From positions 3,942 to 67,941 of the forward strand of contig WQSH01000001.1 in the NCBI GenBank assembly GCA_009787995.1: a stretch of DNA of 64,000 nt. Direction: 5' to 3'. Below the pieces are notes generated by a model that saw only the letters and a program-made list of their open reading frames with translations, made no database searches and had not been told where the DNA came from. The translations under genes were made by a program, and so were the position numbers. The stretch is from Oscillospiraceae bacterium (GTDB taxonomy: Bacteria > Bacillota > Clostridia > Oscillospirales > Oscillospiraceae). Shown one piece after another: positions 998 to 21,671 of this stretch (positions are counted from its first letter, which is position 1; each line of letters begins with the position of its first letter).

Positions 998-1692
998 GAT
1001 AAACCCTCCCCAGTCATTTTAATAAATACCGCTTCTAAGTCCGGCACCGTTTTAATTGCACCATGCCGCTGGCAAATTTCCGCTGGCACACCTTGCTCCA
1101 CAATTCTGCCTTTGTGCAAAAGCAGCACATGGTCGCATAGTTTGACCGCTTCATCCATGTTATGGGTTGTCAAAAATATGGTTGTGCCTCGCTTTTGCAA
1201 ACCTTGGATAAGTTGATGAATCCCTTGTGCTGTCGAGGGGTCAAGGCCGCTTGTTGGCTCATCGAGAAACAGCACCTTAGGGTTATGCAAAATCGCTCGG
1301 GCGAGCGCAAGCCGCTGGCGCATGCCTTTTGAAAGTTGGCCGACCGCCTTTTTTGCGGAGCTGCCCAGCCCAACTCTTTCAAGCGCCTCGCTCGATTTTT
1401 TGTGCGAAATCCCATATATGTCAGCAAAAACGTTGAGATTATCGAGGCAGTTGAGCCTGTCGTACAGCCCGTCTTCATCTAGCATAAGCCCTGTTTCATG
1501 CAGACTTACGCTAATCCTATGGCTGCCGTTGTCTGGGCTTAACTGGTTGGTCAAAATGTTTATTATTGTGGTTTTGCCTGCGCCGGAACGTCCCAAAAGC
1601 CCAAATATTTCTCCTTGCTTAGCTTCAAAGGACACGTTTGAAAGTACAGTTTGTGCACCAAAGGATTTTACAATGTTGTTCATTTTAATCAT
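994..1692 (-). CDS. ABC transporter ATP-binding protein
   Basis: Walker A GRSGAGKTT, ABC signature LSKGMRQR, Walker B LFLDEPTSGLD. ATG at 1692. Confidence 0.9.
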   Translation of the reverse strand: MIKMNNIVKSFGAQTVLSNVSFEAKQGEIFGLLGRSGAGKTTIINILTNQLSPDNGSHRISVSLHETGLMLDEDGLYDRLNCLDNLNVFADIYGISHKKSSEALERVGLGSSAKKAVGQLSKGMRQRLALARAILHNPKVLFLDEPTSGLDPSTAQGIHQLIQGLQKRGTTIFLTTHNMDEAVKLCDHVLLLHKGRIVEQGVPAEICQRHGAIKTVPDLEAVFIKMTGEGLS

Positions 1693-2185
1693 CTTTACTT
1701 CCCTCCCGTTTTAATTTATGATTAGACAGAGCCTTGTTGTAGCGCTTGTCCTCTATCTTTGTTTTTGCAATCATGCCTAGCGACCCAAGCCCAAAACCTC
1801 CTACGAAGAACCCTAAAAATGCAGCCCACGCTTCCCACATGTTGAGAGGGAACCACCGGAATACAATTGCAAAAATAATGCAAGATACAACCCCAAGAAA
1901 TAAGAGCGACACCATGCGCCATAGCAGCATCACTTTTCTGAAGAGCAAATCCGATGTCAGAAGTGTGTTCAAAACACCAAGGGCGAGGGACAGTGCAAAA
2001 ATTTGCGCTATGCTCTGAAATGACAGCCCCGCACTGCCTAACCGGAATATTCCGCCAAACTCGATTTGCGAATCCCCAAGCATCCATCCTGTGGCGCTTA
2101 TCGCCAATATCGAAAGTGCAAACGAAGTTATTGTGTTTTGATAAATTAAATTGACTATTCTCTTTTTTTCCTCCATTATCATCAC
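1685..2185 (-). CDS. DUF3021-like integral membrane protein
   Basis: 166-aa protein with about 4 TM segments. Translationally coupled (4-nt ATGA overlap) to the upstream LytTR gene, the usual LytTR/DUF3021 pairing in Firmicutes. Confidence 0.65.
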   Translation of the reverse strand: MMIMEEKKRIVNLIYQNTITSFALSILAISATGWMLGDSQIEFGGIFRLGSAGLSFQSIAQIFALSLALGVLNTLLTSDLLFRKVMLLWRMVSLLFLGVVSCIIFAIVFRWFPLNMWEAWAAFLGFFVGGFGLGSLGMIAKTKIEDKRYNKALSNHKLKREGSKDD

Positions 2186-2622
2186 GCCCTTCCTAATTTA
2201 TTTTTGATAAACTCGGCATATTGCCTTGATACTATCAATTTCTCGTTATTTTCCATGACTACGACAATCTTTCCGTCAAGGTCTGATTTTAATGACTTTA
2301 TTTTGTTGAAATTTATGATGCTGGACTTTCCAGCTCGGAAGAAGTCGCTTGTGGATAGGTTTTCCTCTAACTCATAAAGCCGCAGGCTTGTTTCGTATAC
2401 AGCCGATTCCGTGTATAAGAACGTCTTTTTGTCCACGGTGTCTATATATAGGATTTTGCTTGTGCTCAGTATGTGCGTCTGCCCGTCCTTTGTGCCTGTC
2501 AGCTTGAAATCCAGAGCACGAAGGCTGGCGATAACTTTTTCGAGTTCCTCACTCATGACGGCGCAGTTTATTGTAATTTCTGTTTCCGCATAATTTTTAT
2601 CTATATTTATGTTTATTTTCAC
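2182..2622 (-). CDS. LytTR-family DNA-binding protein
   Basis: C-terminal LytTR-type sequence (ILYIDTVDKKTFLYT...FFRAGKSSIINFNKIKS). Likely start is the GTG at 2622, preceded by GGAGGTG. The open frame extends to 2655. Confidence 0.8.
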   Translation of the reverse strand: MKININIDKNYAETEITINCAVMSEELEKVIASLRALDFKLTGTKDGQTHILSTSKILYIDTVDKKTFLYTESAVYETSLRLYELEENLSTSDFFRAGKSSIINFNKIKSLKSDLDGKIVVVMENNEKLIVSRQYAEFIKNKLGRA

Positions 2623-2875
2623 GAATTCACCTCCCCGGGGCAAAGTAGGTTGCAAACAGAGCTTGCGGACAGCCAGTAGGCAATGCCTGTTTAAGATAGT
2701 ATATACCTAACGCTTCACTTGCAAGCGATTTTTCCTAAGATACAAAAAAATGCCCCTAAGTTACGCTTAAGGGCCGCTAAGCACGCTGCCTGGCTGCTGC
2801 TGCGGCCAGAAGGATTAGCTACTACAAAGAAAAGCACGCTTCATGCTTTTCAGTGCGAAAGGACGAGTCATAAAT

Positions 2876-3247
2876 ATGGAATTACAAAAAATAGAGGGAG
2901 ACTTTTGTGTGTGCAAGATAGAAAGCATAGCGCAAATAGACTTCACAAGGGAACTGCTGTTTGTTGCAAAAGCCCCTGATGAAATTTCCTTAGTTTGCGA
3001 ATCTGCGCATGTGCCTTCAAATGCCGTGGAAATTGAAAAGGGCTGGAAGGCATTGAGAATATCAGGAACATTAGATTTCGGGTTAGTTGGGGTAGTGGCA
3101 AAGATTTCAAGCATCTTAGCTGATGCGCAAATCAGCATATTCGTCGTATCAACATACAACACAGACTACATCCTTATGAAAGAAGAACGCCTCTGCAAAG
3201 GACTTCAAACCCTTATTAATAATGGCTATGTCGTAAACGAAGTATAA
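2876..3247 (+). CDS. ACT-domain protein
   Basis: The pattern ...WKALRISGTLDFGLVGVVAKISSILADAQISIFVVSTYNTDYILM is typical of small ACT-domain proteins. The ATG at 2876 is the first ATG after the open-frame start at 2843. Confidence 0.65.
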   Translation: MELQKIEGDFCVCKIESIAQIDFTRELLFVAKAPDEISLVCESAHVPSNAVEIEKGWKALRISGTLDFGLVGVVAKISSILADAQISIFVVSTYNTDYILMKEERLCKGLQTLINNGYVVNEV

Positions 3248-3284
3248 TTGCTCACATTTGAGGCGTTTCTCTGCAACTAGTGCC

Positions 3285-3371
3285 TCGTTCCCGAAGCACT
3301 AGAAACCCCTTGCGAAGCAAGCTTTCCACAAGTTGTTGTAGCAATTGTTTCACGTGAAACAATATATATGG
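3285..3371. repeat. Direct repeat copy B (~85 bp) carrying a parS site
   Basis: See copy A; core 3319..3371. Preceded by a 7-bp stem, ctagtgc/gcactag. Confidence 0.85.
3346..3361. promoter_or_regulatory. parS: parS, perfect palindrome TGTTTCACGTGAAACA
   Basis: Exact 16-mer identical to the site at 200..215; intergenic. Confidence 0.85.
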
Positions 3372-8138: not shown

Positions 8139-10184
8139 GTGAAAGATATAAAAAACGGTGGGTTAATCACTCCACTCTTATTGCTGATGGTGGCTTGCTT
8201 TGTGGTGCTTGTCACTGTTGCTGGGGTTATATCATACGGCACGGTGCTAAACCAGAGCATGAATACCCTCCAGCAGCAAAATTCATCGCTCAGCTATAGG
8301 ATTGACGGATGGGTTGACGGGAAAATGACCTTGGTGGAGCAAGTCGCCATGATTATGGGCAACCCGGGTGTCAGCTCGGACGTAGCGCACACTCATCTTG
8401 CCTCTACGCTCCGCGCCCACGACAGCCTCACTGAGGTTTACGCAGGCTTCGCCGACGGAACAGGACTCTTCGGCGGCGGTTTTATTCCGCCGGACTGGTG
8501 GATTGCGTACGAACGCCCGTGGTATGTGCTTGCGGCGCAAAATCCCGGACGGCCAATGCTAACAGCGCCTTTTGTCGATGCCGGTACGGGCAACCTTGCC
8601 CTTGCCGCCGTGCGCACAATTAATGACTTAAACGCTGACGCAGGCGTTGCGTCGATTGATATACCGCTGACCACCGTGGCGGACTTTATCGATGAAGCGA
8701 ACATCGGAACACACGCTTTCTCGTTTTTGCTTAACGCAGACGGTTATATCCTAATGCACCGCGACCCGGATTTCGGACCCGATTCTGAAGGTGTCTTCCG
8801 CAGCATCCGCGCCGCTTCCGGCGGGCGGTTCGCAGACATGTTCGATGCGGTTTTGCGTGATGGGTATCACATCGGCGGCGGGTTCGTCCATATTGGCAGC
8901 CAGCTTGAAACCTCCGGTTGGTACGTTGTCACCCAAGTACCGCTTTCGTACGCAATCGGGCAGGTTTTCTTCAACGTCGGAAGTATTGCTGTTGCGCTTA
9001 TCGCTGCGTCGATTGTTTTTACGCTGTATGTATCCCGGCGGCTTAAATATCACTTAACCCGCATGGCGAGGGCGTTTGGAGGACTCGGCAAAACAGGCAG
9101 TCTTGAATTTGAGGCGGATGTAATGGCATCGGCAATGAACTGCAGCACATGGCGAAATGAAATCGGAGACAGCGCGCGCGGTTTTGGCGGAATTGTTCAG
9201 CACCTGAGCACAGTTGAGCAGAATTTGTCGCATATGGCGGACGGCGATTTTTCGATTGAGATAACGCCACTGTCAGAGAAAGACCACATCAGCATTTCGA
9301 TGCTGAAGATGAGGGATAACCTGAATGCGATGTTCGGCGAGATACAAACAACCACGGCACAAGTCGCCACCGGGTCGAAGCAGATTGCGGACGGTGCTCA
9401 AGTCCTTGCGCAAGGCAGTACCGAGCAGGCGGCGGCGGTTAAAGAGCTATTTGACGCAATGAGCGGCATTGACAAGATGGTAAACGAGGACAAGATCAGC
9501 ACTGGGCGCGCAATATCAAACGCCGATATAATCATGAAAAACGTGGAAGTCAGCGGTGAGCAGATGACCGGCATGATTGCTGCCGTGCGCGAGATTGAAC
9601 AGGCATCGCAGAGTATAAGCAAGGTCATCAAGGTCATCGACGATATTGCGTTCCAGACGAACATCCTCGCTCTCAACGCCGCAGTTGAAGCTGCGCGCGC
9701 CGGTCAGCACGGTAAAGGCTTTGCCGTTGTGGCTGAGGAGGTTCGCAGCCTTGCGGCGAAGAGTGCGGAAGCCGCAAAAGATACCAACGAGCTTATCTCC
9801 AACACTATCGAAAAGGCGGAACTTGGCGCAAAAATCGCCGGAGAAACCGCTGCAAGTCTTGAGGCAATTACGTCAAACCTCGGCGAAAACAAGCAAATCA
9901 TCCACGAAATCGGCAGCTCTGTGGATGGTCAGCTTGCTGTGTTCAAGGGCATAAACGCCGGCATAGAGCAAGTGTCCCACGTCGTTTCACAAAACTCTGC
10001 GACGGCACAAGAATCGGCCGCCGCATCGCAGGAGATGAGCGGACAGTCGATAATGTTGGAGCAATTGATTTCGCAGTTCAAGCTAAAAGATTCCGACGGA
10101 TTGGGAAACCGCATATCCGCACCGCCAGCGATTGGTTTGCCTGCGCATGAGAAAGGTGCGCCCAACGATACGCACAGGAAATAA
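8139..10184 (+). CDS. Methyl-accepting chemotaxis protein (Cache-like sensor, HAMP, MA domain)
   Basis: N-terminal TM segment, periplasmic domain, second TM segment and HAMP-like region. The conserved signalling hairpin is present ([37 protein letters not shown]). The GTG at 8139 is the only in-frame start after the stop at 8127..8129. Confidence 0.9.
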
Positions 10185-10230
10185 TAAGGGCTTGCCAAGG
10201 CAATTTTTTGGATACCTCCCTGTGACCGGG

Positions 10231-11223
10231 TTACAGCTCCAGTTTTCCGCCTGTTCCCGGCTCTGCTGGCAAGCCGTATTCTTGCTTTAGCATTGCAGCG
10301 AGCCGCTTAAGCTCCTGCTCCCACTGGTTTCGACCGGTTGGCTCATAGGCTTCCATCGGGTATTTTATCATCAGCGATTCGTACTTCTCTGTCCCTAACT
10401 TCCGAAACGGCAGCAGCTGCCATGAGATTATTTCACTTCGCAACTCGTCTTTAATAAACTGCCCGATTGCACGGATTTCTTGCTCTCCTCCATTATACCC
10501 GGGCACGATGGGGGTGCGGAGCACGAGCTTTTTCCCAAGCCCCACCGTTTTTTTGAGATTGCCGAGCACAAGCTCATTGCCAACGCCCGTGCACTTTTTG
10601 TGGGCTTCGCTGTCCATGTGCTTAATGTCTGCAATCACAAGGTCGGCGTACCTGAAAACGGCCTCCATATGCTCAGCCGGGCAATGGAGTGCCGTCTCGA
10701 TGCAGGTGTTTATCCCTGTTTCTTTGCAGGCCTTGAGCAGCATTTCGGCAAATTCCCATTGTGCCATGACCTCGCCGCCGCTCAACGTGACCCCGCCGCC
10801 GCTCTTGTCATAAAAATTGCGGTCGCCTTCGACTGCTTTCATAAGCGCAGGGAGGGTCAGTTGCTTCCCCCAGAGCTTTATCGCCCTGGGGGGGCAGGCT
10901 TCTGCGCATTTTAAGCAACTTTTGCACTCTTCCGCCATTTTAAGCCTCGCAAGCGTTCCGCTTTCGTCAAATTCAATCGGTGCGCCTTTCATGGGGCAAA
11001 CTTTTGCGCAGTATCCACATTTGTGCTTTGTCAGGCACCTTGCCGGATATATTCCCAGCCTCTGGTATGGCTTGATTGTTTCCGGGTTTGAGCACCATAT
11101 ACAGTTCATCGTGCATCCGGAAAAAAAGATTGCCGTCCTTATCCCGGGCCCATCGTGTATTGTGTAGTGTTGGATGTTGCTGACAAGCGCACAAGGCTCG
11201 CCGCACAGTGTCTTATGAAGCAT
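10231..11223 (-). CDS. Glycyl-radical enzyme activating protein (radical SAM)
   Basis: DGPGIRTAIFFSGCTMNCIWCSNPE (CxxxCxxC cluster) plus two ferredoxin-like Cys clusters (CGYCAKVCP, CKSCLKCAEACP). ATG at 11223 has an AGGA Shine-Dalgarno; the open frame extends to 11271. Confidence 0.85.
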   Translation of the reverse strand: MLHKTLCGEPCALVSNIQHYTIHDGPGIRTAIFFSGCTMNCIWCSNPETIKPYQRLGIYPARCLTKHKCGYCAKVCPMKGAPIEFDESGTLARLKMAEECKSCLKCAEACPPRAIKLWGKQLTLPALMKAVEGDRNFYDKSGGGVTLSGGEVMAQWEFAEMLLKACKETGINTCIETALHCPAEHMEAVFRYADLVIADIKHMDSEAHKKCTGVGNELVLGNLKKTVGLGKKLVLRTPIVPGYNGGEQEIRAIGQFIKDELRSEIISWQLLPFRKLGTEKYESLMIKYPMEAYEPTGRNQWEQELKRLAAMLKQEYGLPAEPGTGGKLEL

Positions 11224-11407
11224 TTGCCGTCCTTTCTCCGCTACCACCCCTAGACCGCCTTTATCCGACATTTCAACGCCTCATTTGTATGTTCCGGCGC
11301 TTTTGCCTTGTCGGGCTGCCCGGCTTTTGCTAAACTAAATGCAGCTCGATACTGCGGCTATATAAAAACAGTATCGGCAATAACATGTATTCTGGGAGGT
11401 GCTTCTT

Positions 11408-12265
11408 ATGAAGTTTAAAGCTAAGGTTGATTGGTGGATTCATTTAACATTTGCCGTTTTAGTAGCAGTAAACATTTGGGCTTTGGTCAACATTGTAAAC
11501 TGGGGTGTCACCGGCATCATACTTGCTGCGACCTTCACCCCGATCAATGTGTTTACCTTGCCTATTTGGCTCAACTCGTATTATCTAGTGGAGAGGGGAG
11601 AGCTGATTGTGCGCAGCGGTTTTTTAACTATGGGAAGGATTGAGGTCGGACAAATCACTAGCATCGGCAGAACCTGGAACCCCATAAGCTCCCCGGCGCT
11701 GTCGCTCGACCGAACAGAAGTCCGTTACAAGTATAAGAGCGGGAATTATCACGACACGCTTTTAATTGCGCCTAAGGATAGGGATGGTTTTATCGCACAT
11801 CTCAAAAGCATAAACGAAAGTATTGAAGTCGCCGAAGGCAGGACGCCCGTATCAAAGGGAACCAAAATGCTCTTAATCGTTGTCGGGGGCATTTCGGCGA
11901 TAACGCTCCTTGGGGTTGGCGTGATGTTCCTTGTCGGGGAGGCCGAGCCGGCAGTCACCATCCACAGCGACCACATACAGATTCGCTCCATGTATGGGAC
12001 AAGCGTCCCCTTCGGCAACATCACCGAAATCACATTGATTGACCAAAGCATGAGGGAAATCGGCGCAGGGCGCAGGACTAATGGCTATGCTGCAGCCGCT
12101 TGGAAGGGCCATTTCTCGGTGGGATTGCTGTTTGTCCGGCCGGATTCAAGCCCTACCATCCGAATCGAGCGAAGCTTAGGGAGCGCTATTTTCATAAGCT
12201 TCAGGGATAACGCTAGGACGGTGGATGTATATGGGGAATTGACTTTGGCGTTGTCTGCACCATAA
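11408..12265 (+). CDS. Membrane protein with bacterial PH-like (YdbS/YdbT-type) domains
   Basis: Two N-terminal TM segments followed by ...YYLVERGELIVRSGFLTMGRIEVGQITSI...LSLDRTEVRY, typical of bPH domains. A further TM segment and a second similar module follow. Confidence 0.6.
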   Translation: MKFKAKVDWWIHLTFAVLVAVNIWALVNIVNWGVTGIILAATFTPINVFTLPIWLNSYYLVERGELIVRSGFLTMGRIEVGQITSIGRTWNPISSPALSLDRTEVRYKYKSGNYHDTLLIAPKDRDGFIAHLKSINESIEVAEGRTPVSKGTKMLLIVVGGISAITLLGVGVMFLVGEAEPAVTIHSDHIQIRSMYGTSVPFGNITEITLIDQSMREIGAGRRTNGYAAAAWKGHFSVGLLFVRPDSSPTIRIERSLGSAIFISFRDNARTVDVYGELTLALSAP

Positions 12266-12302
12266 GCAGGGCAGTCTTTATTCAAGCAATAATAGCACAA
12301 GA

Positions 12303-12332
12303 GGGTATGGTTCGGCAAGGTGTACCATACCC
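12303..12332 (+). terminator. Stem-loop downstream of the PH-domain gene
   Basis: Perfect 9-bp stem gggtatggt/accataccc with a 12-nt loop; only a weak T-tract follows. Confidence 0.3.
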
Positions 12333-12463
12333 CCTTGGCATCTTAAAAATTGAGCTTTTCAGCTCTTTCCCATTATGGTATATTGGTATGGGAATGTGCC
12401 GATCGGCAGTGGCAGCTGCCGATTGTCTCCCACATCGTGACGTGAGCTCAGTGGGCAAAAAAC

Positions 12464-12492
12464 TTGCGCCGCAGTCACATTTGTGGTATATT
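12464..12492 (+). promoter_or_regulatory. Candidate promoter of the TerB/ATPase/helicase operon
   Basis: TTGCGC, 17-nt spacer, TATATT with extended -10 (TGgTATATT), ~40 nt upstream of the ATG at 12531. A second TGgTATATT lies at 12376..12384. Confidence 0.4.
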
Positions 12493-12530
12493 CACTCAAA
12501 AAAAGTTGCATGTTGTGTTAAGAGGGAAGT

Positions 12531-14273
12531 ATGGGCAAGCATAGTGCAGACAAAATATATGAAGCATCCAAAATCCCCTTCCGGCAATCTGTGCGGGAAG
12601 CCGGAGGTGTTGAGCAACCAGTCTTAGCGAAACCGCTGCCCACCATATCCCCAACTAGCGATGTTTATTATGAAATCGAATATGACTCCTGCCCAATCCC
12701 GGGCGTTGGCAAATTCGTACCAAAGCCGCAAAAAATCGCAGAGCCTGAGAAAGATGAAATCCGCGACTTATTTTTGAAGATGAGGGAAATTTCCAGGACT
12801 CATCAGTCCCCAAGCTCATATGTAAAGTTTTTTGGCAGAAACTCCTCTCGCGACAACAGCTATGTCTTTTATAGGCAGGGCATGTTTATGAAGGATTTTA
12901 CCGACGACTATACAGGCAACGCCCCATTCTCACATTATTTCCCATATTATCAGATTATGGGGTACGAGCAGCTCAGGACGTACTTTACTTGGCGCACGCA
13001 GATCCGGGAGGGCATAATATCCGAAACGCCTTTATCCTACGCATTTTTGTACATTTACGAATTGTTGAGCAACATCGGGGTAAGCGGCCCTCAGGACGGA
13101 CTTGACCGGCTGATGGCTTTTTGGAGAGCTTTTGGCGCTCACACCAAAATCATCGATAGGTACATGATTCGATGGCTGAAGGATTATCATATCTATTACC
13201 AGCTCCCAAGGTCATTTCAGGAATTCATCGCAGAAAACAGCCTCGCCGCACATTATCCAAGCATAGCGGCACCGGATGATATTTTCAACTTATTCTGCGT
13301 TATTTCAAAATACGATATCAAGAGGTCTGCTTTCTTTGCCGATGGCAACGCAACGCTCATTGAGGATTGTTTTGTCTATGTTATAAGCAGACTCAAGCAA
13401 ATCTGCACAGACCGAAGTATCGACTTTGATAGATCCATATTTCAACCGCCAATAAAGAGGCTAGCATGGACACCATTCAGGGATGCGCTATTTTATCAGT
13501 GGGCGCCTCAAGCGGATAGGCGGATTGTGCTATCGACCACTGAAATCTACATATGCGAACAAGGCAAATGGACATATAGCACTGCAATCACAACCGATGG
13601 CGGGAGACTGCTGGTCGGCTATATTATGAAGCAAATGGAGTCTGTCCTTAGACAAGTCACCCAGCATAAATTCAAGCTCTCTGCCAGCATAAGCAACGCC
13701 TCCAGCCCCATTGTCGAGGAGTTGCGCATCTCAGGGAAGCCACTTGAAAGTATAGTGAGCGACGCAACTCTTGAATTTTATAGGGAGGCGACAAAAACAA
13801 TCGTCAAGGTGGATTTGAGCGCATTGTCATTAATCAGGAAGGAAGCCCTTGCCACACAGGAGAAATTGATTGTGCCGGAACAGGGTGTTCAGCCTGTTGG
13901 CGCAAAATCACGCACTCCCCACCTGACGGACTTGCAAAATTTGCCACAAGCGGCACTGCAGGATATATTGCCATCCGAACCTGAGCCTAGGCCTAGGCCG
14001 ACGCCAACATTCGATTCTGCTGCTCCAGCCGCCTCGGAAGACGCCGAAAGCGTCAAAAGCATTTTTACGGAATCTGAGCTAGGGGCTTTGTGCGCAGCGC
14101 TGCGCGGCGAGCCGGATATACAGGCGTTCGCCGACGGGTGCGGCGTCATGCCTGAGGTTTTGGTTGATGGGATTAACGTGAAAGCGATGGATTATATCGG
14201 CGATAACCTGCTTGATGAGGATTTCGTTTTGTACGATGATTATAAGGAATTGGTAAGGGGTTGGGTATTATGA
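12531..14273 (+). CDS. TerB-N / TerB-C domain protein (SngA-like)
   Basis: TerB-N hallmark (FSHYFPYYQIMGYEQLRTYFTWRTQIREG...LSYAFLYIYELLSN). A Pro-rich linker (PSEPEPRPRPTP) follows, then a TerB-C-like C-terminus (GVMPEVLVDGINVKAMDYIGDNLLDEDF). Shine-Dalgarno AGAGGGAAG. Confidence 0.75.
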   Translation: MGKHSADKIYEASKIPFRQSVREAGGVEQPVLAKPLPTISPTSDVYYEIEYDSCPIPGVGKFVPKPQKIAEPEKDEIRDLFLKMREISRTHQSPSSYVKFFGRNSSRDNSYVFYRQGMFMKDFTDDYTGNAPFSHYFPYYQIMGYEQLRTYFTWRTQIREGIISETPLSYAFLYIYELLSNIGVSGPQDGLDRLMAFWRAFGAHTKIIDRYMIRWLKDYHIYYQLPRSFQEFIAENSLAAHYPSIAAPDDIFNLFCVISKYDIKRSAFFADGNATLIEDCFVYVISRLKQICTDRSIDFDRSIFQPPIKRLAWTPFRDALFYQWAPQADRRIVLSTTEIYICEQGKWTYSTAITTDGGRLLVGYIMKQMESVLRQVTQHKFKLSASISNASSPIVEELRISGKPLESIVSDATLEFYREATKTIVKVDLSALSLIRKEALATQEKLIVPEQGVQPVGAKSRTPHLTDLQNLPQAALQDILPSEPEPRPRPTPTFDSAAPAASEDAESVKSIFTESELGALCAALRGEPDIQAFADGCGVMPEVLVDGINVKAMDYIGDNLLDEDFVLYDDYKELVRGWVL

Positions 14274-14277
14274 AGGA

Positions 14278-15612
14278 ATGGTCGCTAATATGAGCACAGC
14301 AAGCAGAGTGCCGGGCCGCATTGCAAATATTCTGGTGAATGCCTTGAAGGGCGGCGTCGTGCCTCGTGTGGGGCTTGAATATATAACGGTTGGCAGGGCA
14401 CAGGAGATTTCCGCTATTTTGCACGATATCGAGATGATTGAGGCAGGCGGCGCCACATTCCGCTTCATCGTCGGCAAGTATGGAAGTGGAAAGAGCTTCT
14501 TGCTCCAGACCCTTCGCAACTACGCCACGGCAAAGGGTTTTGCGGTAGTGGATGCAGACCTCTCGCCCGAACGCCGCTTTGCGGGCACAAAGGGGCAGGG
14601 GCTTGCCACTTATAAGGAATTAATCAAAAACCTTTCCACAAAATCAAAGCCTGACGGCGGCGCTCTTGCGCTTATTTTAGAAAAATGGATTTCCGGCATT
14701 CAGGCGGAGGTCAAAATAGAAACAGGAGCGGATGGCGAAGAGTTTGACAAGTTGGTTGAGGCACGGATATTTGCGGTCGCAAGCTCGCTTGAGGGAATGG
14801 TCAATGGTTTTGAATTCGCCAAGGCTGTCGCCGCCTATTGGAGCGCATATCGGCAGGACAATGCGGCGCTAAAGTCCAATGTGCTAAAGTGGTTCAGGGG
14901 TGAGTATGCCTCTCGCAAAGAGGCAAAATCCGATTTAGGCATCAATTTCATAGTCACGGACGAGACCTGGTATGATTTTTTGAAAATATTCGCTGCTTTT
15001 CTGGTTGGCGCCGGATATAAAGGCTTGCTAGTCGTCATTGATGAATTGGTCAATATATTTAAGATTTCGAACTCCATCACAAGGTCGAACAATTACGAAA
15101 AAATCCTCACGATGTATAACGACGTGCTCCAGGGCAAGGCTAGCCACGTTGGTTTTCTCATGGGCGCCACGCCGCAGTGCGTCGAAGATAAATACAAGGG
15201 CTTGTTTAGCTATGAGGCGCTGCGCTCGCGGCTTGCCGAAGGGCATTTCGCCAACGCCGATTTCAAAGACCTCTCGGCTCCCATCATCCGGTTGCAGATG
15301 CTTTCGCAGGAGGAGATGTACGTCCTCGTCGAGAAGCTTCTGCACATCCATGCACAGCTGTACAATTATGCGCCCACTTTATCGCATGACGAACTGGTGT
15401 ACTTTTTAGGTGTGGAATACAACCGAGTCGGCGCCCAGACGCACATAACGCCGCGCGAGATTATCCGTGATTTCATCGAGCTTATAAATATCCTACACCA
15501 AAATCCAAGCAAAAGCATTTCTGAAATCTTGGGCGACAACAGCTTCGAGCTGGCAAAGGGCGGTTTGCCAGACGAAGAGATTCACAGCGAATTTCAGGAG
15601 TTTGAAGTGTAG
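14278..15612 (+). CDS. DUF2791 / BrxC-BrxD-like P-loop ATPase (SngB-like)
   Basis: Begins 4 nt after the previous stop. Walker A FIVGKYGSGKSFLL, Walker B LLVVIDEL. The N-terminal GGVVPRVGLEYITVGR segment is typical of this family. An alternative ATG lies at 14290. Confidence 0.75.
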   Translation: MVANMSTASRVPGRIANILVNALKGGVVPRVGLEYITVGRAQEISAILHDIEMIEAGGATFRFIVGKYGSGKSFLLQTLRNYATAKGFAVVDADLSPERRFAGTKGQGLATYKELIKNLSTKSKPDGGALALILEKWISGIQAEVKIETGADGEEFDKLVEARIFAVASSLEGMVNGFEFAKAVAAYWSAYRQDNAALKSNVLKWFRGEYASRKEAKSDLGINFIVTDETWYDFLKIFAAFLVGAGYKGLLVVIDELVNIFKISNSITRSNNYEKILTMYNDVLQGKASHVGFLMGATPQCVEDKYKGLFSYEALRSRLAEGHFANADFKDLSAPIIRLQMLSQEEMYVLVEKLLHIHAQLYNYAPTLSHDELVYFLGVEYNRVGAQTHITPREIIRDFIELINILHQNPSKSISEILGDNSFELAKGGLPDEEIHSEFQEFEV

Positions 15613-15637
15613 ACAAATAGGAGCGGAGCAATAAAAC

Positions 15638-17848
15638 ATGGATATATTCAACAGGCTTGCGCCGTTTATTCAAGACTTTATTTATCAGAACAAATGGGAA
15701 GAGCTCAGGGGCAACCAAGTGGCTGCCTGTGAGGCGATTTTAGATAGCGACGACAACCTCCTGCTCTCCTCCGGAACTGCTTCCGGCAAGACTGAAGCGG
15801 CTTTTTTGCCCGTACTTACCGAACTATACAACAGACCCTCCGCCTCCGTCGGCGTTTTGTACATATCGCCGCTCAAGGCGCTCATCAACGACCAATTCAA
15901 ACGCTTGGAACAAATGCTCCTGGATTCCAACATCCCCGTCACAAAGTGGCATGGCGACGCATCGCAGACACAAAAAAATAGACTCGTAAAAAACCCCGAA
16001 GGTCTGCTGCAAATTACACCGGAATCGCTGGAAAGCCTGATTACGAACAAGCGGGGCGCCGTCTTGTCGATGTTTTCCGACTTGCGCTTTGTAATTATCG
16101 ACGAAGTCCACTATTTCATGCGCGACGTCCGCGGACTTCAGTTGCTATGCATTTTGGAACGGATTAACCGTCTAACAGGCTCAAACCCGCGCCGGGTCGG
16201 CCTATCCGCAACCCTGGGCGATATTTCACTGGCGCAAAATTGGCTGAATACCAACACAGGCAGGGAGTGTGCTGCCCCTATTGTGGAAGAGGGCAAAAAG
16301 CGGGTCAGGCTGCATGTAGAGCGATTTGTAAATTATGCCGACAAGCGGGATTTTGAAGAGCGGGACGGCAGCGGCAATGTCGTCAATGTCAGCGCCGGGG
16401 ACATCGGCGACCGCGAGCATTATGAATACCTGTTCAAACAAACCCTGGACAAGAAAACCATCGTCTTCACCAACAGCCGAGAGGAAACTGAGCTTGTGAT
16501 GGCACATTTGCGTGAAATCGCCTTAAAAAATAAAGCCCCCGACGTATACAGGGTTCACCACGGCAATGTGTCCGCACTCTTGCGGGAAAGCACTGAAGAC
16601 GAAATGAAGTCTGCCGATGAAAAAATCGTCACCGGAGCCACTGTCACGCTGGAATTAGGCATCGACATAGGCTCGCTTGACCAAGCTGTTCAAATCGGCG
16701 CCCCGCTCAACGTAGCCAGCTTTGCGCAGCGCTTGGGCAGGTGCGGACGGCGCGGGCAAGTTCCGCAATTGCTGTTCACATTTGTAGAAAGCATAAAGAT
16801 TAACTCCGACGATATCCTAGGCCCTATCAACTGGGGTTTTATCCGAACCATCGGCATCATTGAGCTATATCTAAAAGAGCATTGGATTGAGCCGATACCC
16901 CCGCAAAACTACGCCTACAACCTCTTATACCACCAGACTATGAGCTGCTTGAAAAGCAACGGCGAAATGTCTGCGGCAGGACTGGCGCAGTCTGTACTAT
17001 CGTTGGGCTGCTTCAAAAGCATTCCTCAAGAGGATTACAAGAGGCTGCTCACGCATATGCTTGATATCGACCAATTGCAGCGTACCGAGCATGGAGGGCT
17101 CATGATTGGCCGCGAAGGTGAGAGGGTGGTAAATAGCCACAAGTTCCTTACAGTTTTTGTTGCCCCGGAATACTTGCTGGTAAAAGACGAAAGTCGCACC
17201 ATCGGCACGGTTGACAAAATCTATCCTGTCGGCATCCGTTTTGCGCTGGCAGGCCTGGCGTGGGAGACAGTTGACGTAAACGAAAAATCAAAGGTACTCT
17301 TTGTAAAACGAGTTCCGGGCATCTCGCTTGTGGATTGGGATGTTGATTTTCTCGCAGAGCTGCATACGACCCTTGTCCAGAAAGTTCGCAGTGTCCTAAA
17401 AGGCAGCGAGCCTTATCCTTATTTGAGCGACCGCTGCAAAGAGCGGCTTGCCGAAATTCAGTATATTGCCCGGGGCAACGGCATATTGGATAACTTAGTG
17501 ACGCAACTATCTGACAAAAAGTTCGCCATTTTCCCATGGGTCGGCACCAGGCAGCTGATGACCTTAAATTACGCCCTGCGCCAAAGGGGAGTAAAGAGCA
17601 AGATGCCTTTTATCACCTGCGTTTATCTCGAGGCAACTTTTGATGGGACGAAAGACGCCTTGGAGAACATAATAAGCGACATACTCCACAGCAACTTAAA
17701 CCTATATTATCTGCCTCTGCCGGACAAGGTGCAAGTGCCGGGGAAATACAATGAATTCATCCCGCTAAACTTGCTGCGAAAGCAGTTTATCGAGGATTAT
17801 CTTGATTTCGAGGGGCTTAGAGAGGCAATGGGGCTTCAAAAAAGTTAG
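15638..17848 (+). CDS. Superfamily-2 DEAD/DEAH-box helicase (Lhr-like; SngC-like)
   Basis: Motif I SSGTASGKTEA, motif II IIDEVH, motif III-like SATL, motif VI QRLGRCGRRG. The ~330-aa C-terminal region has no motif I recognise. Shine-Dalgarno AGGAGCGGAG. Confidence 0.8.
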   Translation: MDIFNRLAPFIQDFIYQNKWEELRGNQVAACEAILDSDDNLLLSSGTASGKTEAAFLPVLTELYNRPSASVGVLYISPLKALINDQFKRLEQMLLDSNIPVTKWHGDASQTQKNRLVKNPEGLLQITPESLESLITNKRGAVLSMFSDLRFVIIDEVHYFMRDVRGLQLLCILERINRLTGSNPRRVGLSATLGDISLAQNWLNTNTGRECAAPIVEEGKKRVRLHVERFVNYADKRDFEERDGSGNVVNVSAGDIGDREHYEYLFKQTLDKKTIVFTNSREETELVMAHLREIALKNKAPDVYRVHHGNVSALLRESTEDEMKSADEKIVTGATVTLELGIDIGSLDQAVQIGAPLNVASFAQRLGRCGRRGQVPQLLFTFVESIKINSDDILGPINWGFIRTIGIIELYLKEHWIEPIPPQNYAYNLLYHQTMSCLKSNGEMSAAGLAQSVLSLGCFKSIPQEDYKRLLTHMLDIDQLQRTEHGGLMIGREGERVVNSHKFLTVFVAPEYLLVKDESRTIGTVDKIYPVGIRFALAGLAWETVDVNEKSKVLFVKRVPGISLVDWDVDFLAELHTTLVQKVRSVLKGSEPYPYLSDRCKERLAEIQYIARGNGILDNLVTQLSDKKFAIFPWVGTRQLMTLNYALRQRGVKSKMPFITCVYLEATFDGTKDALENIISDILHSNLNLYYLPLPDKVQVPGKYNEFIPLNLLRKQFIEDYLDFEGLREAMGLQKS

Positions 17849-17863
17849 TCTGTTGCCACGCTT

Positions 17864-18400
17864 TTATACCAAAAAGCAGGCGGTGAAAGCAATTTTGTCC
17901 TGGCCGTAGTTGTAGGCTAGGCCGTTGTCAGTGCAGACTTTGCTTACGAATAAGCCGCAAGCCTCCATGGACACCTCCATTCTATCAGGGAAGCGGCAAG
18001 GCTCGTCGGGGTATGTGCAAGACTCGCATATCCTGCAAACGCCCGTGCCCATTGCCAGAATCTCGCCATATTCCTTTTTCAGCTCGCCCCAAAGCTTGGC
18101 AAAAGCCTCCTTCTGACGCATTCCAGCCTCCATAATGCCTTCCCAGTCATAGCTGTCCTCCAGTTCGCCGACTGTCTGAACAAGGATTCCCCCCTCGAAG
18201 CTCTCGACACGCTTTTGCATATCCTCAAGCGAGGCGCAGGCAGGTGGGCAAGACCATGACTTGTTGAAGTTCTCGCACTGGTCTGCATTGCACATATCGC
18301 GGACATCCTGCATGAACTCCAAAGTGGAAACCTTGAGGGGCGAGGAATGGGTAAACCCGCACTCTTCTGCGATTGCAGCAAGTTTGTCGTATTTTGACAT
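17864..18400 (-). CDS. DUF2284-type Cys-rich metal-binding protein
   Basis: Cys-rich pattern (CNADQCENFNKSWSCPPAC...CRICESCTYPDEPCRFP), as in the DUF2284 family. Confidence 0.7.
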   Translation of the reverse strand: MSKYDKLAAIAEECGFTHSSPLKVSTLEFMQDVRDMCNADQCENFNKSWSCPPACASLEDMQKRVESFEGGILVQTVGELEDSYDWEGIMEAGMRQKEAFAKLWGELKKEYGEILAMGTGVCRICESCTYPDEPCRFPDRMEVSMEACGLFVSKVCTDNGLAYNYGQDKIAFTACFLV

Positions 18401-18404
18401 AATT

Positions 18405-19955
18405 TTAATCCTCCGAAAACATAATATGTTCTATAAACGCATCGTTAAAAACTTTGCTCGTCGAAAGCTCTATATACTCGCACCTATTGCGCATATCCTC
18501 AAGCGTCTTGCGGGCGTCGTCTGAGCACAGGGCAAGCGTTGCCCCTTCGCCCGCCGTGTTGCCCATCGTCTGCGTTATTGGCAAGAAGCTTTCCGGAAAA
18601 AGCCCTACCCGTGCGGCGCTTACATGGTCCATAAAGCTGCCAAAGCCCCCAGCAAGAACGAACAGCTTTACCTCACGCTCAGTGATTCCTGCGTGTTGCA
18701 GCAGTGTCTCAATGCCTGCGGCAATAGCCGATTTTGCCAATTGAAGCTTCCTTATGTCAGTCGCTGACATATAGACACCTTTTTCGCTCCTTGACAGCCA
18801 AAACACATTGCTGCCGCCAACTTTCCCGATGTGCGACGCAATATCGTGTTCAACCTCATCCGGATCCAGCAGCCTTCCGGTTTCATCGACAGCTCCCGTT
18901 TCAAGAAGGACGGCAAGCGAATCAAGCAGTCCCGAGCCGCAAAGCCCAAGTGGGCTCTTTCCGCCTATGACCGACAGCTTCAGGCCATCTTCCCAGTTCA
19001 CGTGGTTTATAGCCCCGCTAATCGCCGCCATGCCCATCGTTATCTCCGCCCCCTCGAAAGCCGGGCCTGCGGCAGTCGCGCAGCAGTAAAACGTGTCTCC
19101 CACCTTCATGACAATCTCGCCGTTCGTGCCGATGTCAAGAAAAACGGCCGGACCTTCAACTGCATCCATATTCGCCGCAAGCATTCCTGCCGTAATATCC
19201 CCTCCAACGTAGGAAGAAATGGCAGGGGCATAGTAAAGCTTGCAGTTCCTGCCCACCGGGAGGTTTTCCCACGTTGGGTGCTCGTCGCCAAAAAGGCTGA
19301 TAGGCTCAAACGGCGCAACGCCCATGCCTACCGGAGAATATCCGGCGCAAAGATGCTGCATAATCGTGTTTGCGGCAATCGAAATGTACCCTATGTCCCG
19401 GGCCCTTTCGCCGGAGATTGTGCAGGTGTGTCGTATAAGCGATTCAATCTGCTCCCTTACAAGGGTAGTCAATCTCATATGCCCATGGTCTGAGCAGTAT
19501 TGGATACGGCTGATGACATCAGCTCCGTACGGCCTCTGCGCATTGACTCCGCTGGCTGTAGCAATGCGGATGCCGCTTCCAATGTCCGTCAGATGCGCAA
19601 CGACAGATGTTGTCCCGATGTCTATGGCAACGCCAAGCCTTTTGTTTTTAGCAGGCGGATACGGCCTGTCGGCAAATTTCAAATCCTTTGTGCCCCCTGC
19701 GCTGGCTATTTTCATGTCCATTTCTTCTGGTAAGTAAACTTCCATGTCTCCCTCAACGTGAGTACGACACGCAAGAATCTCTTCCCCTTGCGGGCTGAGG
19801 CGCACACGGCATTTTCCACATCTGCCTTTTCCGCCGCACGGTGCATCAACAAACACCCCTGCGGCACTGATTCGCTCGAGCAATGTCTCGCCAACAATGC
19901 CCGTCGTTTCACAAACAAGCTCACCTGAGCGGAATATTTTGATTATTGGGGTCAT
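18405..19955 (-). CDS. 2Fe-2S ferredoxin plus ASKHA-fold ATPase protein (corrinoid reductive-activase RACo-like, DUF4445)
   Basis: N-terminal plant-type ferredoxin Cys motif (CGGKGRCGKCRV) followed by ASKHA-like segments (VAIDIGTTSV, FLDIGTNGE). The ATG at 19955 has a GGAGGAG Shine-Dalgarno and overlaps the miaB stop (ATGA). Confidence 0.8.
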   Translation of the reverse strand: MTPIIKIFRSGELVCETTGIVGETLLERISAAGVFVDAPCGGKGRCGKCRVRLSPQGEEILACRTHVEGDMEVYLPEEMDMKIASAGGTKDLKFADRPYPPAKNKRLGVAIDIGTTSVVAHLTDIGSGIRIATASGVNAQRPYGADVISRIQYCSDHGHMRLTTLVREQIESLIRHTCTISGERARDIGYISIAANTIMQHLCAGYSPVGMGVAPFEPISLFGDEHPTWENLPVGRNCKLYYAPAISSYVGGDITAGMLAANMDAVEGPAVFLDIGTNGEIVMKVGDTFYCCATAAGPAFEGAEITMGMAAISGAINHVNWEDGLKLSVIGGKSPLGLCGSGLLDSLAVLLETGAVDETGRLLDPDEVEHDIASHIGKVGGSNVFWLSRSEKGVYMSATDIRKLQLAKSAIAAGIETLLQHAGITEREVKLFVLAGGFGSFMDHVSAARVGLFPESFLPITQTMGNTAGEGATLALCSDDARKTLEDMRNRCEYIELSTSKVFNDAFIEHIMFSED

Positions 19956-21373
19956 ATGTGCTCTCCTCCACATTCTCCAAATAATGACCATGAGTTGCAG
20001 TGCGTTATTTTTGCTTGGACAAAATGACCCACCAGCTCGCCTGCGCCGCACAGATGCACAAGCCTGCCTCCGTTCGTGCGGGCTTTGAGAGGGTAACGCT
20101 CGTCGTGCGACTCCCCATCAACCAGCACGCTTATGGATTTGCCTATGTATTTTGTGTGTTTTTTCTCCGAAATCGCATTTTGAAGCTCTAGCAGCCTGTC
20201 AAACCTGATTTGCTTTTCTTCCCGGGTAGTTGTATCTTCAAGCTCTGCGGCTGGCGTGCCTGGCCGCTTTGAGTATATGAATGTGAACATGGCGTCGAAC
20301 TGCGCCTTTTCGACAAGCCTCAGAGTGTCTTCAAATTCTGATTCTGTTTCTCCGGGGAAGCCAACTATAACATCGCTCGTTATAGTGATGTCCGGCATCT
20401 GCTGCCTGGCTTCTGCGATTTTTTCCATATATTCTTCATGTGTATACCCCCGGTTCATAAGGCTCAGTATACGGTCGCCCCCCGCCTGAAATGGCAGATG
20501 TATATGCCTTGCGGCTTTCTCGCTCTCTGCCATAGCTTTAAATAGCTCTGTGCTGGCGTCCTTAGGATGGCTGGTCATGAACCTTATTAAGAACGCTCCG
20601 TCGATATCGTTTATTTTGCGAATGAGCGTTGCAAAATCTGTTTTGCACGGAAGCCCCATTCCATATGAATTGACATTCTGGCCTAGTAAAGTTATGTCTT
20701 TGAATCCGTCTTTCACAAGCTGCTTTGCTTCTTTTAGGATTGCTTCCGGTTCGCGGCTTCTCTCCTGCCCGCGCACGTATGGCACGATGCAATATGAGCA
20801 ATGGTTGTCGCAGCCGTACATGATGGGCAGCCATGCTTTTACCGTTCCGTCGCGGTGCGCGGGAATCCCTTCTGCTATGGCTCCTTCGTTTGCGTCGGTT
20901 TCGAATATGCGGCCTTTGGCCGTGAGCGTGCGGTGCAGCAGTTCAGGGAAGCGCCATAACACGTTTGGCGAAAACATGAGGTCGACGTGTTTGTACGACT
21001 GCCGCACCTTTTCGACTGTCTCAGGTACCGCAGCCATGCATCCGCAGAACACAATTGTCTGCGTCGGCTTTGCTTTTTTTGTGTGGACGAGCGCACCGAC
21101 GTTGCCGAAAACTCGGTTTTCAGCATTTTCGCGGATTGCGCACGTGTTTATAATGACTATGTCTGCTTGGAATTCGTCGCCCGTAAAGCCATAGCCCATC
21201 TCGGCAAGCATCCCGCGCAGTTTTTCGCTATCAGATTCGTTTTGCTGGCACCCATATGTATCTACATACGCAAGCGGCTGCACCGGCCTTGCTTGCGATG
21301 ATTCGAGGATTTGCTGCATCACTTTTTTCTGATTTTCTATTTCGTTTGTCGGTATTTCGGCTCTCTCGTTCAA
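19952..21373 (-). CDS. miaB: tRNA-i6A37 methylthiotransferase MiaB
   Basis: UPF0004 N-domain (TYGCQQNESDSE), radical-SAM CDNHCSYCIVP, and a C-terminal TRAM domain. The TTG at 21373 is preceded by GGAGG; the open frame extends to 21403. Confidence 0.9.
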   Translation of the reverse strand: MNERAEIPTNEIENQKKVMQQILESSQARPVQPLAYVDTYGCQQNESDSEKLRGMLAEMGYGFTGDEFQADIVIINTCAIRENAENRVFGNVGALVHTKKAKPTQTIVFCGCMAAVPETVEKVRQSYKHVDLMFSPNVLWRFPELLHRTLTAKGRIFETDANEGAIAEGIPAHRDGTVKAWLPIMYGCDNHCSYCIVPYVRGQERSREPEAILKEAKQLVKDGFKDITLLGQNVNSYGMGLPCKTDFATLIRKINDIDGAFLIRFMTSHPKDASTELFKAMAESEKAARHIHLPFQAGGDRILSLMNRGYTHEEYMEKIAEARQQMPDITITSDVIVGFPGETESEFEDTLRLVEKAQFDAMFTFIYSKRPGTPAAELEDTTTREEKQIRFDRLLELQNAISEKKHTKYIGKSISVLVDGESHDERYPLKARTNGGRLVHLCGAGELVGHFVQAKITHCNSWSLFGECGGEHI

Positions 21374-21671
21374 GGTGTCCTCCGCGGCAGCGCTGCTGCA
21401 CAATGACTGTATTTCTACTATACTCTGTTTTCACTAATTTTTCAAGATGTTTTATAAGATTGTTGTGCATATTGATAGACGGCGCTATACTTCACGGCCA
21501 TCTTGGGCGTATACCGTGCAACATGCGTACAGTAACTTTAACACATTCTGCGACAGATTTTAATGGCAAGTTTTGGTTATAGTTTTCCTTGAAAAAATCA
21601 CCTGAATATGGTACGGTATGTTGAATAGTTGTACAGCGTGCCTAGATGGACATTATGAGGGGTGAGACTGG

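Follow-up and report, generated by a model that had tools for sequence, protein, structure and literature searches.

We identified a three-gene locus that is very probably a homologue of the anti-phage system Shango (sngA-sngB-sngC) in an uncultured termite-gut Oscillospiraceae bacterium. The genes lie in a 64,000-nucleotide (nt) stretch of contig WQSH01000001.1 (GenBank assembly GCA_009787995.1, forward-strand positions 3,942 to 67,941), referred to here as the window, and are chromosomal, about 19 kb from dnaA. The overall reading that we favor, a chromosomal three-gene Shango system that is solitary among housekeeping genes and for which a mechanism can be proposed, appears quite probable, and an anti-phage role in this host is likely on balance. 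The name Shango comes from Millman et al. (10.1101/2022.05.11.491447), and efficiency of plating changes 10-100-fold in Pseudomonas aeruginosa PA14 and about 10-fold in Escherichia coli carrying such systems (PMC10250203, Johnson et al. 2023). This literature agrees with the name and the protective effect given in a first-pass annotation made from the letters of the same DNA. The role of TerB-type proteins in defense and the mechanism of Shango were still called unclear in 2025 (10.1101/2025.09.30.679545), and we found no published mechanism or solved structure for the system in the literature or the PDB. Likewise, a search of the literature returned no tested representative from Clostridia, as the annotation had suspected. 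The Shango family itself is already known and covered by existing PADLOC models, and the locus adds nothing categorically new; its interest lies in being a copy of a validated defense system for which we found no published mechanism.

Family identity of the triad

The three predicted proteins each found their best PADLOC hidden Markov model (HMM) in a different Shango component, in canonical order and near full length. The first open reading frame (ORF) matched SngA at 5e-64 (215.8 bits), with amino acids (aa) 83-578 aligned to positions 73-526 of the 528 in the model. ORF2 matched SngB over its full length (4.1e-178), and ORF3 matched SngC at 3e-217, with aa 3-729 aligned to model positions 5-715 of 720. 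The runners-up were BrxD for ORF2 (1.6e-45) and BrxHI for ORF3 (1.9e-117, again full length), which the SngB and SngC models beat by 437 and 330 bits, respectively. Shango membership is defined here by these model matches, with three co-located genes taken as the rule by assumption. The same co-directional A-B-C order is present in all ten other triad loci that we examined, including those on E. coli and Clostridium plasmids. The first-pass suggestion of a Shango-type operon is supported.

Pfam searches recovered every domain that had been proposed from the sequence, namely TerB_N, TerB_C, DUF2791, DEAD, and Helicase_C. ORF1 carries TerB_N (1.1e-31, 110.7 bits, aa 103-236) and TerB_C (1.5e-8, 35.4 bits, aa 418-573), both above the cut-off. 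ORF2 matches BrxC_BrxD (PF10923, 4e-158), which we take to be the former DUF2791, and ORF3 matches DEAD (4e-29) and Helicase_C (1.5e-15). Judged by HMM E-values of 1e-31 to 1e-217, chance similarity is ruled out. No NCBIfam equivalog scored above its own cut-off for any of the three proteins: the BrxD equivalog reached 157 bits on SngB against a cut-off of 350, and the best match of SngC, the ligase-associated DNA-damage DEXH helicase TIGR04121, reached 200 bits against a cut-off of 850 and covered aa 11-376 only. No nuclease, toxin, or membrane domain is encoded by the three-gene operon. The annotation had further cited a prediction of this domain triad as a mobile DNA-processing or conflict system by Anantharaman, Iyer and Aravind, which is borne out through later citations only.

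A predicted AAA+ ATPase and helicase pair

By homology, SngB is a BrxD-like ORC/Cdc6-type AAA+ ATPase. Its motifs are intact, with Walker A as GKYGSGKS (K68) and Walker B as LLVVIDE (D251/E252; 440-aa numbering). SngC is predicted to be a superfamily 2 (SF2) DExH helicase with an Lhr/MrfA-like motor at aa ~20-380, in which motifs I, II, III, and VI are intact as GTASGKT (K51), DEVH (155-158), SAT (190), and QRLGRCGR (364). The SngB and SngC motifs quoted in the earlier annotation are therefore present. The nearest solved structures to SngC by sequence are those of Lhr (5v9x, 6e-31; also 7lhl) and MrfA (6znp, 8e-25), with similarity confined to aa 30-377, while no sequence relatives of SngB or SngA were found in the PDB.

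The first-pass annotation had set apart a C-terminal helicase region of ~330 aa that it could not assign. The region is real, but it is a module in common with BrxHI rather than an unassignable one: the C-terminal ~350 residues of SngC align with the PADLOC BrxHI model throughout. The module was detected in 1,089 representative clusters at 50% identity (614 of them at E<=1e-10), and it almost invariably occupies positions ~370-730 in proteins of ~700-770 residues. A match to WH_Lhr at aa 412-475 falls below threshold (E=0.011, 15.5 bits, cut-off 27), and a winged-helix domain in this region is probable. An AlphaFold2 (AF2) model of the C-terminal 357 aa, built from a shallow alignment of 41 sequences at ~80% identity, reached a mean predicted local distance difference test (pLDDT) score of 56.6. 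Foldseek of this model against the PDB gave no match at E<=0.001 and just winged-helix look-alikes of ~68 residues, and a diverse profile of the module found no relative among PDB sequences. By homology, the SngC C-terminus is best described as a BrxHI-type C-terminal module, with a probable winged helix and further domains. BrxHI itself comprises an SF2 motor followed by a winged helix-turn-helix, a HAS-type beta-barrel, and an Lhr C-terminal domain-like domain, according to a 2026 survey of BREX systems (PMC12839542), and Tuck et al. placed SngC in a clade of defense helicases together with BrxHI, DruE, and DpdJ (PMC12278908).

A SngA subtype with no detectable TerB core

SngA is soluble and non-enzymatic and contains a long disordered linker. 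Its parts are TerB_N, an unassigned alpha/beta middle part, a disordered Pro-rich linker, and TerB_C, which an AF2 model (mean pLDDT 71.7) renders as a helical TerB_N segment at ~110-245, an alpha/beta segment at ~250-450, a disordered linker at 451-505, and a small helical C-terminal domain. The Pro-rich linker noted in the first-pass annotation is real: it is 17% Pro, hypervariable and gappy among homologues, and predicted to be disordered, while sequence is conserved in the TerB_N core and at the very C-terminus. No transmembrane (TM) segment was found in SngA, with a maximum Kyte-Doolittle (KD) hydropathy over a 19-residue window of 1.11, and no enzymatic domain was found. Pfam families beyond TerB_N and TerB_C were not detected at E<=5, and Foldseek of the AF2 model against the PDB returned nothing significant and no TerB-fold match.

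Although SngA carries TerB_N and TerB_C, a TerB core was not detected. PF05099 gave no match at E<=5 with either the whole protein or aa 231-450, and it is carried by none of the 120 closest SngA homologues, of which the nearest is merely 60% identical. An hhalign comparison of a clostridial SngA profile with E. coli SngA yielded an alignment covering the TerB_N core only. On the evidence of these profiles, SngA of the window is a TerB-core-less subtype that still matches the SngA profile, and it is placed inside the family because both SngA types match one PADLOC model (348.7 and 215.8 bits).

Unequal evolutionary rates

The three proteins differ sharply in conservation. We sampled eight clostridial-type triad loci outside the window, referred to here as sister loci, and in three of these (L005, L006, and L008) SngA is 53-58% identical to the window protein, SngB 86-88%, and SngC 85-88%. 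SngC remains 82-86% identical across Oscillospiraceae, Anaerocolumna, Saccharofermentanales, and Paenibacillus. The ratio of nonsynonymous to synonymous substitution rates (dN/dS) is 0.10 for SngA, 0.026 for SngB, and 0.024 for SngC, as measured in a single unsaturated pair with a dS of ~1.5 for all three genes. The evolutionary rate of SngA is thus roughly fourfold that of SngB and SngC, both of which are under very strong purifying selection. We considered recent horizontal transfer as the source of the 85-88% identity of SngB and SngC and rejected it because synonymous sites are saturated; the high identity therefore reflects constraint. This asymmetry fits a SngA that acts as a specificity or sensor subunit and a motor in which SngB and SngC are closely adapted to each other. 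Sequence variation is found mostly in SngA, making it a candidate specificity subunit, and the extreme conservation of SngB and SngC suits biochemistry and structural work.

Locus layout, indel status, and distribution

The coordinates of the three co-directional ORFs given in the first-pass annotation, with gaps of 4 and 25 nt, are exact for the ORFs as listed (Table 1). The sngB-sngC gap is 25 nt, and the gap between sngA and sngB is 4 nt from the ATG at 14278 or 16 nt from the ATG at 14290. Gene calls on both public copies of this contig favor the second ATG, and SngB homologues have 438-440 aa, with the alignment beginning at the residue encoded by ATG 14290. The start at 14290, and with it a gap of 16 nt, is more probable.

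Table 1. Features of the triad, its upstream region, and the regulator genes of sister loci
Feature	Sequence	Positions	Strand	Length	Basis or remark
sngA	window	12531-14273	+	580 aa	ORF list
sngB, longer start	window	14278-15612	+	444 aa	ORF list
sngB, favored start	window	14290-15612	+	440 aa	gene calls and homologue alignment
sngC	window	15638-17848	+	736 aa	ORF list
bPH_4 membrane protein gene	window	11399-12265	+		Pfam bPH_4 1.1e-15; TM segments, KD 2.43
Region 5' of sngA	window	12266-12530	+	265 nt	
Hairpin, possible bPH_4 terminator	window	12298-12337			consensus-level prediction, repeat I14
TG-extended -10-type promoter-like site	window	12356-12384			consensus-level prediction
Second TG-extended -10-like site, TGGTATATT	window	~12484-12492			consensus-level prediction
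HTH-S24 gene	L006	7396-7956			
HTH-S24 gene	L008	7403-7963			
HTH-S24 gene	L012	4404-4964			
HTH-S24 gene	L013	4397-4957			
HTH-S24 gene	L014	4413-4973			
HTH-S24 gene	L016	4324-4884			

The surroundings of the triad are of a housekeeping type, and the adjoining genes encode bPH_4, a radical-SAM activase, DUF2284, and RACo. The flanks agree with the first-pass annotation, with the gene for a PH-domain membrane protein on one side and a DUF2284 gene on the other that is convergent with sngC, the stop codons lying 15 nt apart. The origin-proximal position was also correct, as dnaA (37045), dnaN (38657), gyrB (41611), and gyrA (43569) follow ~19-28 kb past the triad. GC content shows nothing unusual. 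For annotation purposes, the locus represents a clean case of one defense system inserted between origin-proximal housekeeping genes, where neither an integrase nor flanking repeats were found.

Using the flanking RACo-like gene, we found two related Oscillospiraceae metagenome-assembled genomes (MAGs), L003 and L004, that are 75-77% identical. In L004, an orthologue of the DUF2284 gene (76%) is followed 42 nt on by an orthologue of the radical-SAM activase gene (74%); in the window these two genes are 6.6 kb apart, with bPH_4 and sngABC between them. L003 carries other genes at the syntenic position, and the triad block is absent there. The comparison supports an islet-like block of bPH_4 and sngABC that is an insertion or deletion relative to L004. 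No integrase, tRNA gene, Rfam element, or flanking direct repeat was found at the islet boundaries, and PADLOC gave no defense-model matches among the neighbors of the triad. The self-contained islet proposed in the first-pass annotation is in keeping with both the indel and the lack of defense matches nearby.

A copy of the window contig (L002, JGI24694J35173_10000686) and the Shango-less L003 (JGI24694J35173_10004296) come from one metagenome, so that a single sample contains related Oscillospiraceae both carrying and lacking the block at this locus. The proteins are annotated in NCBI as deriving from an Oscillospiraceae MAG, and identical copies of the contig are present in two metagenome assemblies. 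The MiaB/RACo-like/DUF2284 cluster at 17864-21403 of the window is also present in L003 and L004 and runs straight into a glycyl-radical-type radical-SAM activase in L004, suggesting that DUF2284 and the RACo-like reductive activase are functionally linked. Elsewhere in the window, a 232-aa protein encoded on the minus strand (994-1692) matches PADLOC mad3 (2.2e-31) and several other ATPase components; this is most probably generic ABC-type ATPase similarity and not a defense gene.

Flanking genes differ among most of the sampled loci, with L006 and L013 sharing theirs. SngB-like ATPases of ~42% identity are present on 697 PLSDB plasmids (449 from Klebsiella and 144 from Salmonella), 542 of which are conjugative. 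The full triad was inspected at one of these 697 loci, L010, where a Shango triad lies between IS5 and IS66 at 70438-76259 of the E. coli IncF plasmid NZ_CP054225.1. The Clostridium estertheticum megaplasmid pCF002-344 (L011) also carries a triad, near a relaxase gene and IS110. There, a gene for an ABC-ATPase-domain protein of ~848 aa (9596-12142) begins 17 nt past sngC on the same strand and is a possible accessory fourth component. On the 6.6-Mb contig of L012, a phage-integrase fragment and a gene for a WYL-domain helix-turn-helix (HTH) regulator, at 1334-3328, precede the S24-sngABC block by a few kb. These L012 neighbors hint that some copies of the triad reside in mobile or defense-type contexts.

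Upstream region and a LexA-like regulator in sister loci

The region between bPH_4 and sngA contains a possible terminator and promoter-like sites (Table 1), and a run resembling a ribosome-binding site, AGAGGGAAG, precedes the sngA ATG. It also contains two palindromes, each a candidate operator or RNA hairpin: TTCCCAT-N12-ATGGGAA, within 12370-12400, overlaps the distal -10-like element, and ATCGGCAG-N6-CTGCCGAT, at 12404-12428, lies just past it. Another candidate that we examined was bPH_4 as a fourth Shango component. It was rejected, as bPH_4 is absent from all eight other sampled loci and has no PADLOC match.

Six of the eight sister loci carry, 28-117 nt upstream of sngA and on the same strand, a gene for a 186-aa protein with an HTH and a Peptidase_S24 domain, resembling LexA and CI. 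These HTH-S24 proteins are highly similar to one another and retain a LexA-like Ala-Gly cleavage site (VSAG|LGN) together with the catalytic Ser (G[DN]SMMP) and Lys motifs. The gene is preceded by two conserved inverted-repeat boxes that resemble operators, ATGCATATTCTGCAT and TTGCAGAANCTGCRAT; the second of these, 16 nt long, is found once and only once in each S24 locus and in no other locus. In the window, tblastn detected no remnant of the HTH-S24 gene, and searches with the Firmicutes SOS box and the operator boxes of the S24 loci gave chance-level matches, none of them within 12266-12530. The three upstream regions that lack the S24 gene have just one -10-like element as a common motif.

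The six sister loci with the S24 gene may possibly be four-gene Shango operons that are derepressed by DNA damage. A LexA-like repressor with recognizable operators in most sister loci points to DNA damage or single-stranded DNA (ssDNA) as the inducing signal and suggests that the clostridial clade is deployed on ssDNA/RecA-type signals, with the window copy lacking such control. A more far-reaching idea is that the clostridial triads form a distinct Shango subtype, in which a core-less, fast-evolving SngA is combined with an exceptionally constrained SngB-SngC motor; the ancestral state would be a four-gene operon autoregulated by the LexA-like repressor, and the window copy would have become deregulated through loss of the repressor and its operators. 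We regard this as speculative and rather unlikely; if true, the clostridial subtype would be a genome-integrity-coupled defense switched on by RecA/ssDNA-type signals.

Proposed mechanism and alternative explanations

We propose a mechanistic sketch that, as a whole, is tentative and on the doubtful side. SngB, as an ORC/Cdc6-type AAA+ protein homologous to BrxD, would load or activate SngC, an Lhr/BrxHI-like DNA translocase with a winged helix and further putative DNA-binding domains at its C-terminus. The two may work as a dyad, as proposed for BrxD-BrxHI of type 2 BREX, where BrxD, an ORC/Cdc6 AAA+ protein, may load or activate BrxHI (PMC12839542). SngA would be the fast-evolving sensor or adaptor through which the motor responds to a phage cue or to aberrant DNA structure. 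Phage DNA replication might then be blocked, with no dedicated nuclease, as the motor uses ATP to translocate on replication or recombination intermediates of the phage. Such a nuclease-free model would fit the modest, 10-100-fold protection conferred by the Shango systems that have been tested. The core-less SngA, the constrained SngB-SngC pair, and the LexA-like regulator retained in relatives and lost here offer leads toward the mechanism of Shango.

Several observations weigh against a defense system working in this way. The anti-phage experiments are confined to E. coli and P. aeruginosa systems, and the locus lies outside any defense island. SngA of the window (580 aa) aligns with that of the E. 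coli plasmid (769 aa) over 43 aa of TerB_N only (E 0.005), and the plasmid protein has the TerB core PF05099 (31.8 bits), which the window protein lacks. SngA-like genes were found in none of 50,697 phage records and as three weak partial matches among 72,556 plasmids. The dN of SngB and SngC between families is 0.07-0.10, against 0.145-0.186 for the housekeeping flanks within one family; constraint above that of housekeeping flanks is unusual for defense genes, and a role in DNA maintenance also fits. Additionally, the structure predictions gave no significant fold matches, and the domain-level mechanism leans on homology to BrxHI, BrxD, and Lhr.

The chief alternative, which part of this evidence would suit, is that the clostridial triad serves mainly in the response to DNA damage or its repair: an Lhr/MrfA-like helicase, an AAA+ protein, and an adaptor would be induced in an SOS-like manner and act on stalled or damaged replication intermediates. 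Lhr and MrfA/YprA, to which the SngC motor is nearest, are DNA-damage helicases, and the top NCBIfam match of SngC is likewise a DNA-damage helicase. A repair module would also be in line with the LexA-like S24 repressor gene and conserved operators upstream of six of the eight sister loci, the very strong purifying selection on SngB and SngC (dN/dS ~0.025), the solitary, housekeeping-like setting with no adjoining defense genes, and the absence of SngA-like genes from phage records and their rarity on plasmids. However, the distribution is patchy and the context varies, with the block missing at the syntenic site of L003 and L004, and the Shango models, which derive from defense systems, outscore all others by far, while the NCBIfam Lhr-type models remain far under their cut-off (200 versus 850 bits). 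The proteobacterial homologues are experimentally anti-phage and reside on segments of conjugative plasmids flanked by insertion sequences (IS), and LexA-like control is also compatible with defense. We therefore judge a primary repair function improbable.

Two further explanations concern the partners of the triad. Reviews and Millman et al. (10.1101/2022.05.11.491447) speculate that TerB proteins survey membranes, and a TerB-type protein that senses envelope perturbation together with bPH_4, in a membrane-surveillance or abortive-infection system, would make sense of the bPH_4 membrane protein gene just upstream in the same indel block. Yet bPH_4 is missing from eight of eight other clostridial-type loci, and in the window 265 nt with a hairpin and promoter-like sites separate it from sngA. 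The operon encodes no pore-forming or lipid-acting effector, and both enzymatic partners of SngA are DNA-motor proteins. With neither a TM segment nor a detectable TerB core in SngA, the label of "TerB protein" and the idea of membrane surveillance are inapplicable to this subtype, and we consider this explanation very improbable. SngB and SngC could also be what is left of a type 2 BREX (Pgl) system, a stranded BrxD-BrxHI pair next to an unrelated TerB-N/C gene, given that BrxD and BrxHI are the second-best PADLOC models and that Pfam labels ORF2 as BrxC_BrxD. The bit-score lead of the SngB and SngC models and the sub-threshold NCBIfam BrxD score argue otherwise, no PglX, PglZ, BrxC, or PglW is encoded within +/-10 kb, and sngA is linked to sngB-sngC in the same order in all ten other triad loci, so that a BREX remnant is effectively refuted. 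A Shango-type defense system remains the reading that we prefer.

Comparison with known systems

The closest known system is the Shango of E. coli and P. aeruginosa PA14. The E. coli plasmid Shango (NZ_CP054225.1) has the same A-B-C order and the same SngB and SngC sizes as the window triad. Its SngC is 30% identical to the window SngC end to end (E 2e-104), and its SngB is ~43% identical. The Shango systems of E. coli and P. aeruginosa PA14 include no nuclease or toxin gene, and the same is true of the window triad. A TerB core domain is listed for Shango (PMC10952713), and this is where the window SngA departs from the E. coli plasmid protein. The settings also differ: the window triad is solitary and chromosomal, whereas the E. 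coli plasmid Shango lies in an IS-flanked segment, and the window triad is not in a defense hotspot. The LexA-like regulator of the sister loci finds no mention in the Shango descriptions that we consulted.

Bunzi, Dionysus, and the terZABCDE tellurite/stress cluster share with this locus a vocabulary of "Ter" domains; the definition of TerB_N and TerB_C goes back to proteins linked to TerB. A TerB core, TM segments, or pore-forming effectors are present in those systems, whereas the window SngA shows none of the three and is partnered by DNA motors. The neighbors of the triad (bPH_4, radical-SAM activase, DUF2284, and RACo) are not TerD, TerC, or TerZ, which, together with the missing TerB core, sets the locus apart from Ter clusters. 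Lhr and MrfA (YprA) provide the closest solved structures to the SngC motor, and there is a weak WH_Lhr match past the motor; the likeness is confined to aa 30-377, and these helicases are not encoded with an AAA+ and a TerB-N/C partner.

The nearest relatives of the enzymatic pair are BrxD and BrxHI of type 2 BREX/Pgl, a homologous and tightly linked ATPase-helicase pair in which the likeness of BrxHI to SngC extends over the whole length. Type 2 BREX/Pgl also includes the methyltransferase PglX, PglZ, BrxC, and PglW. The window triad has none of these and therefore none of their modification-based self/non-self logic; in their place, it pairs the ATPase and helicase with a TerB-N/C partner.

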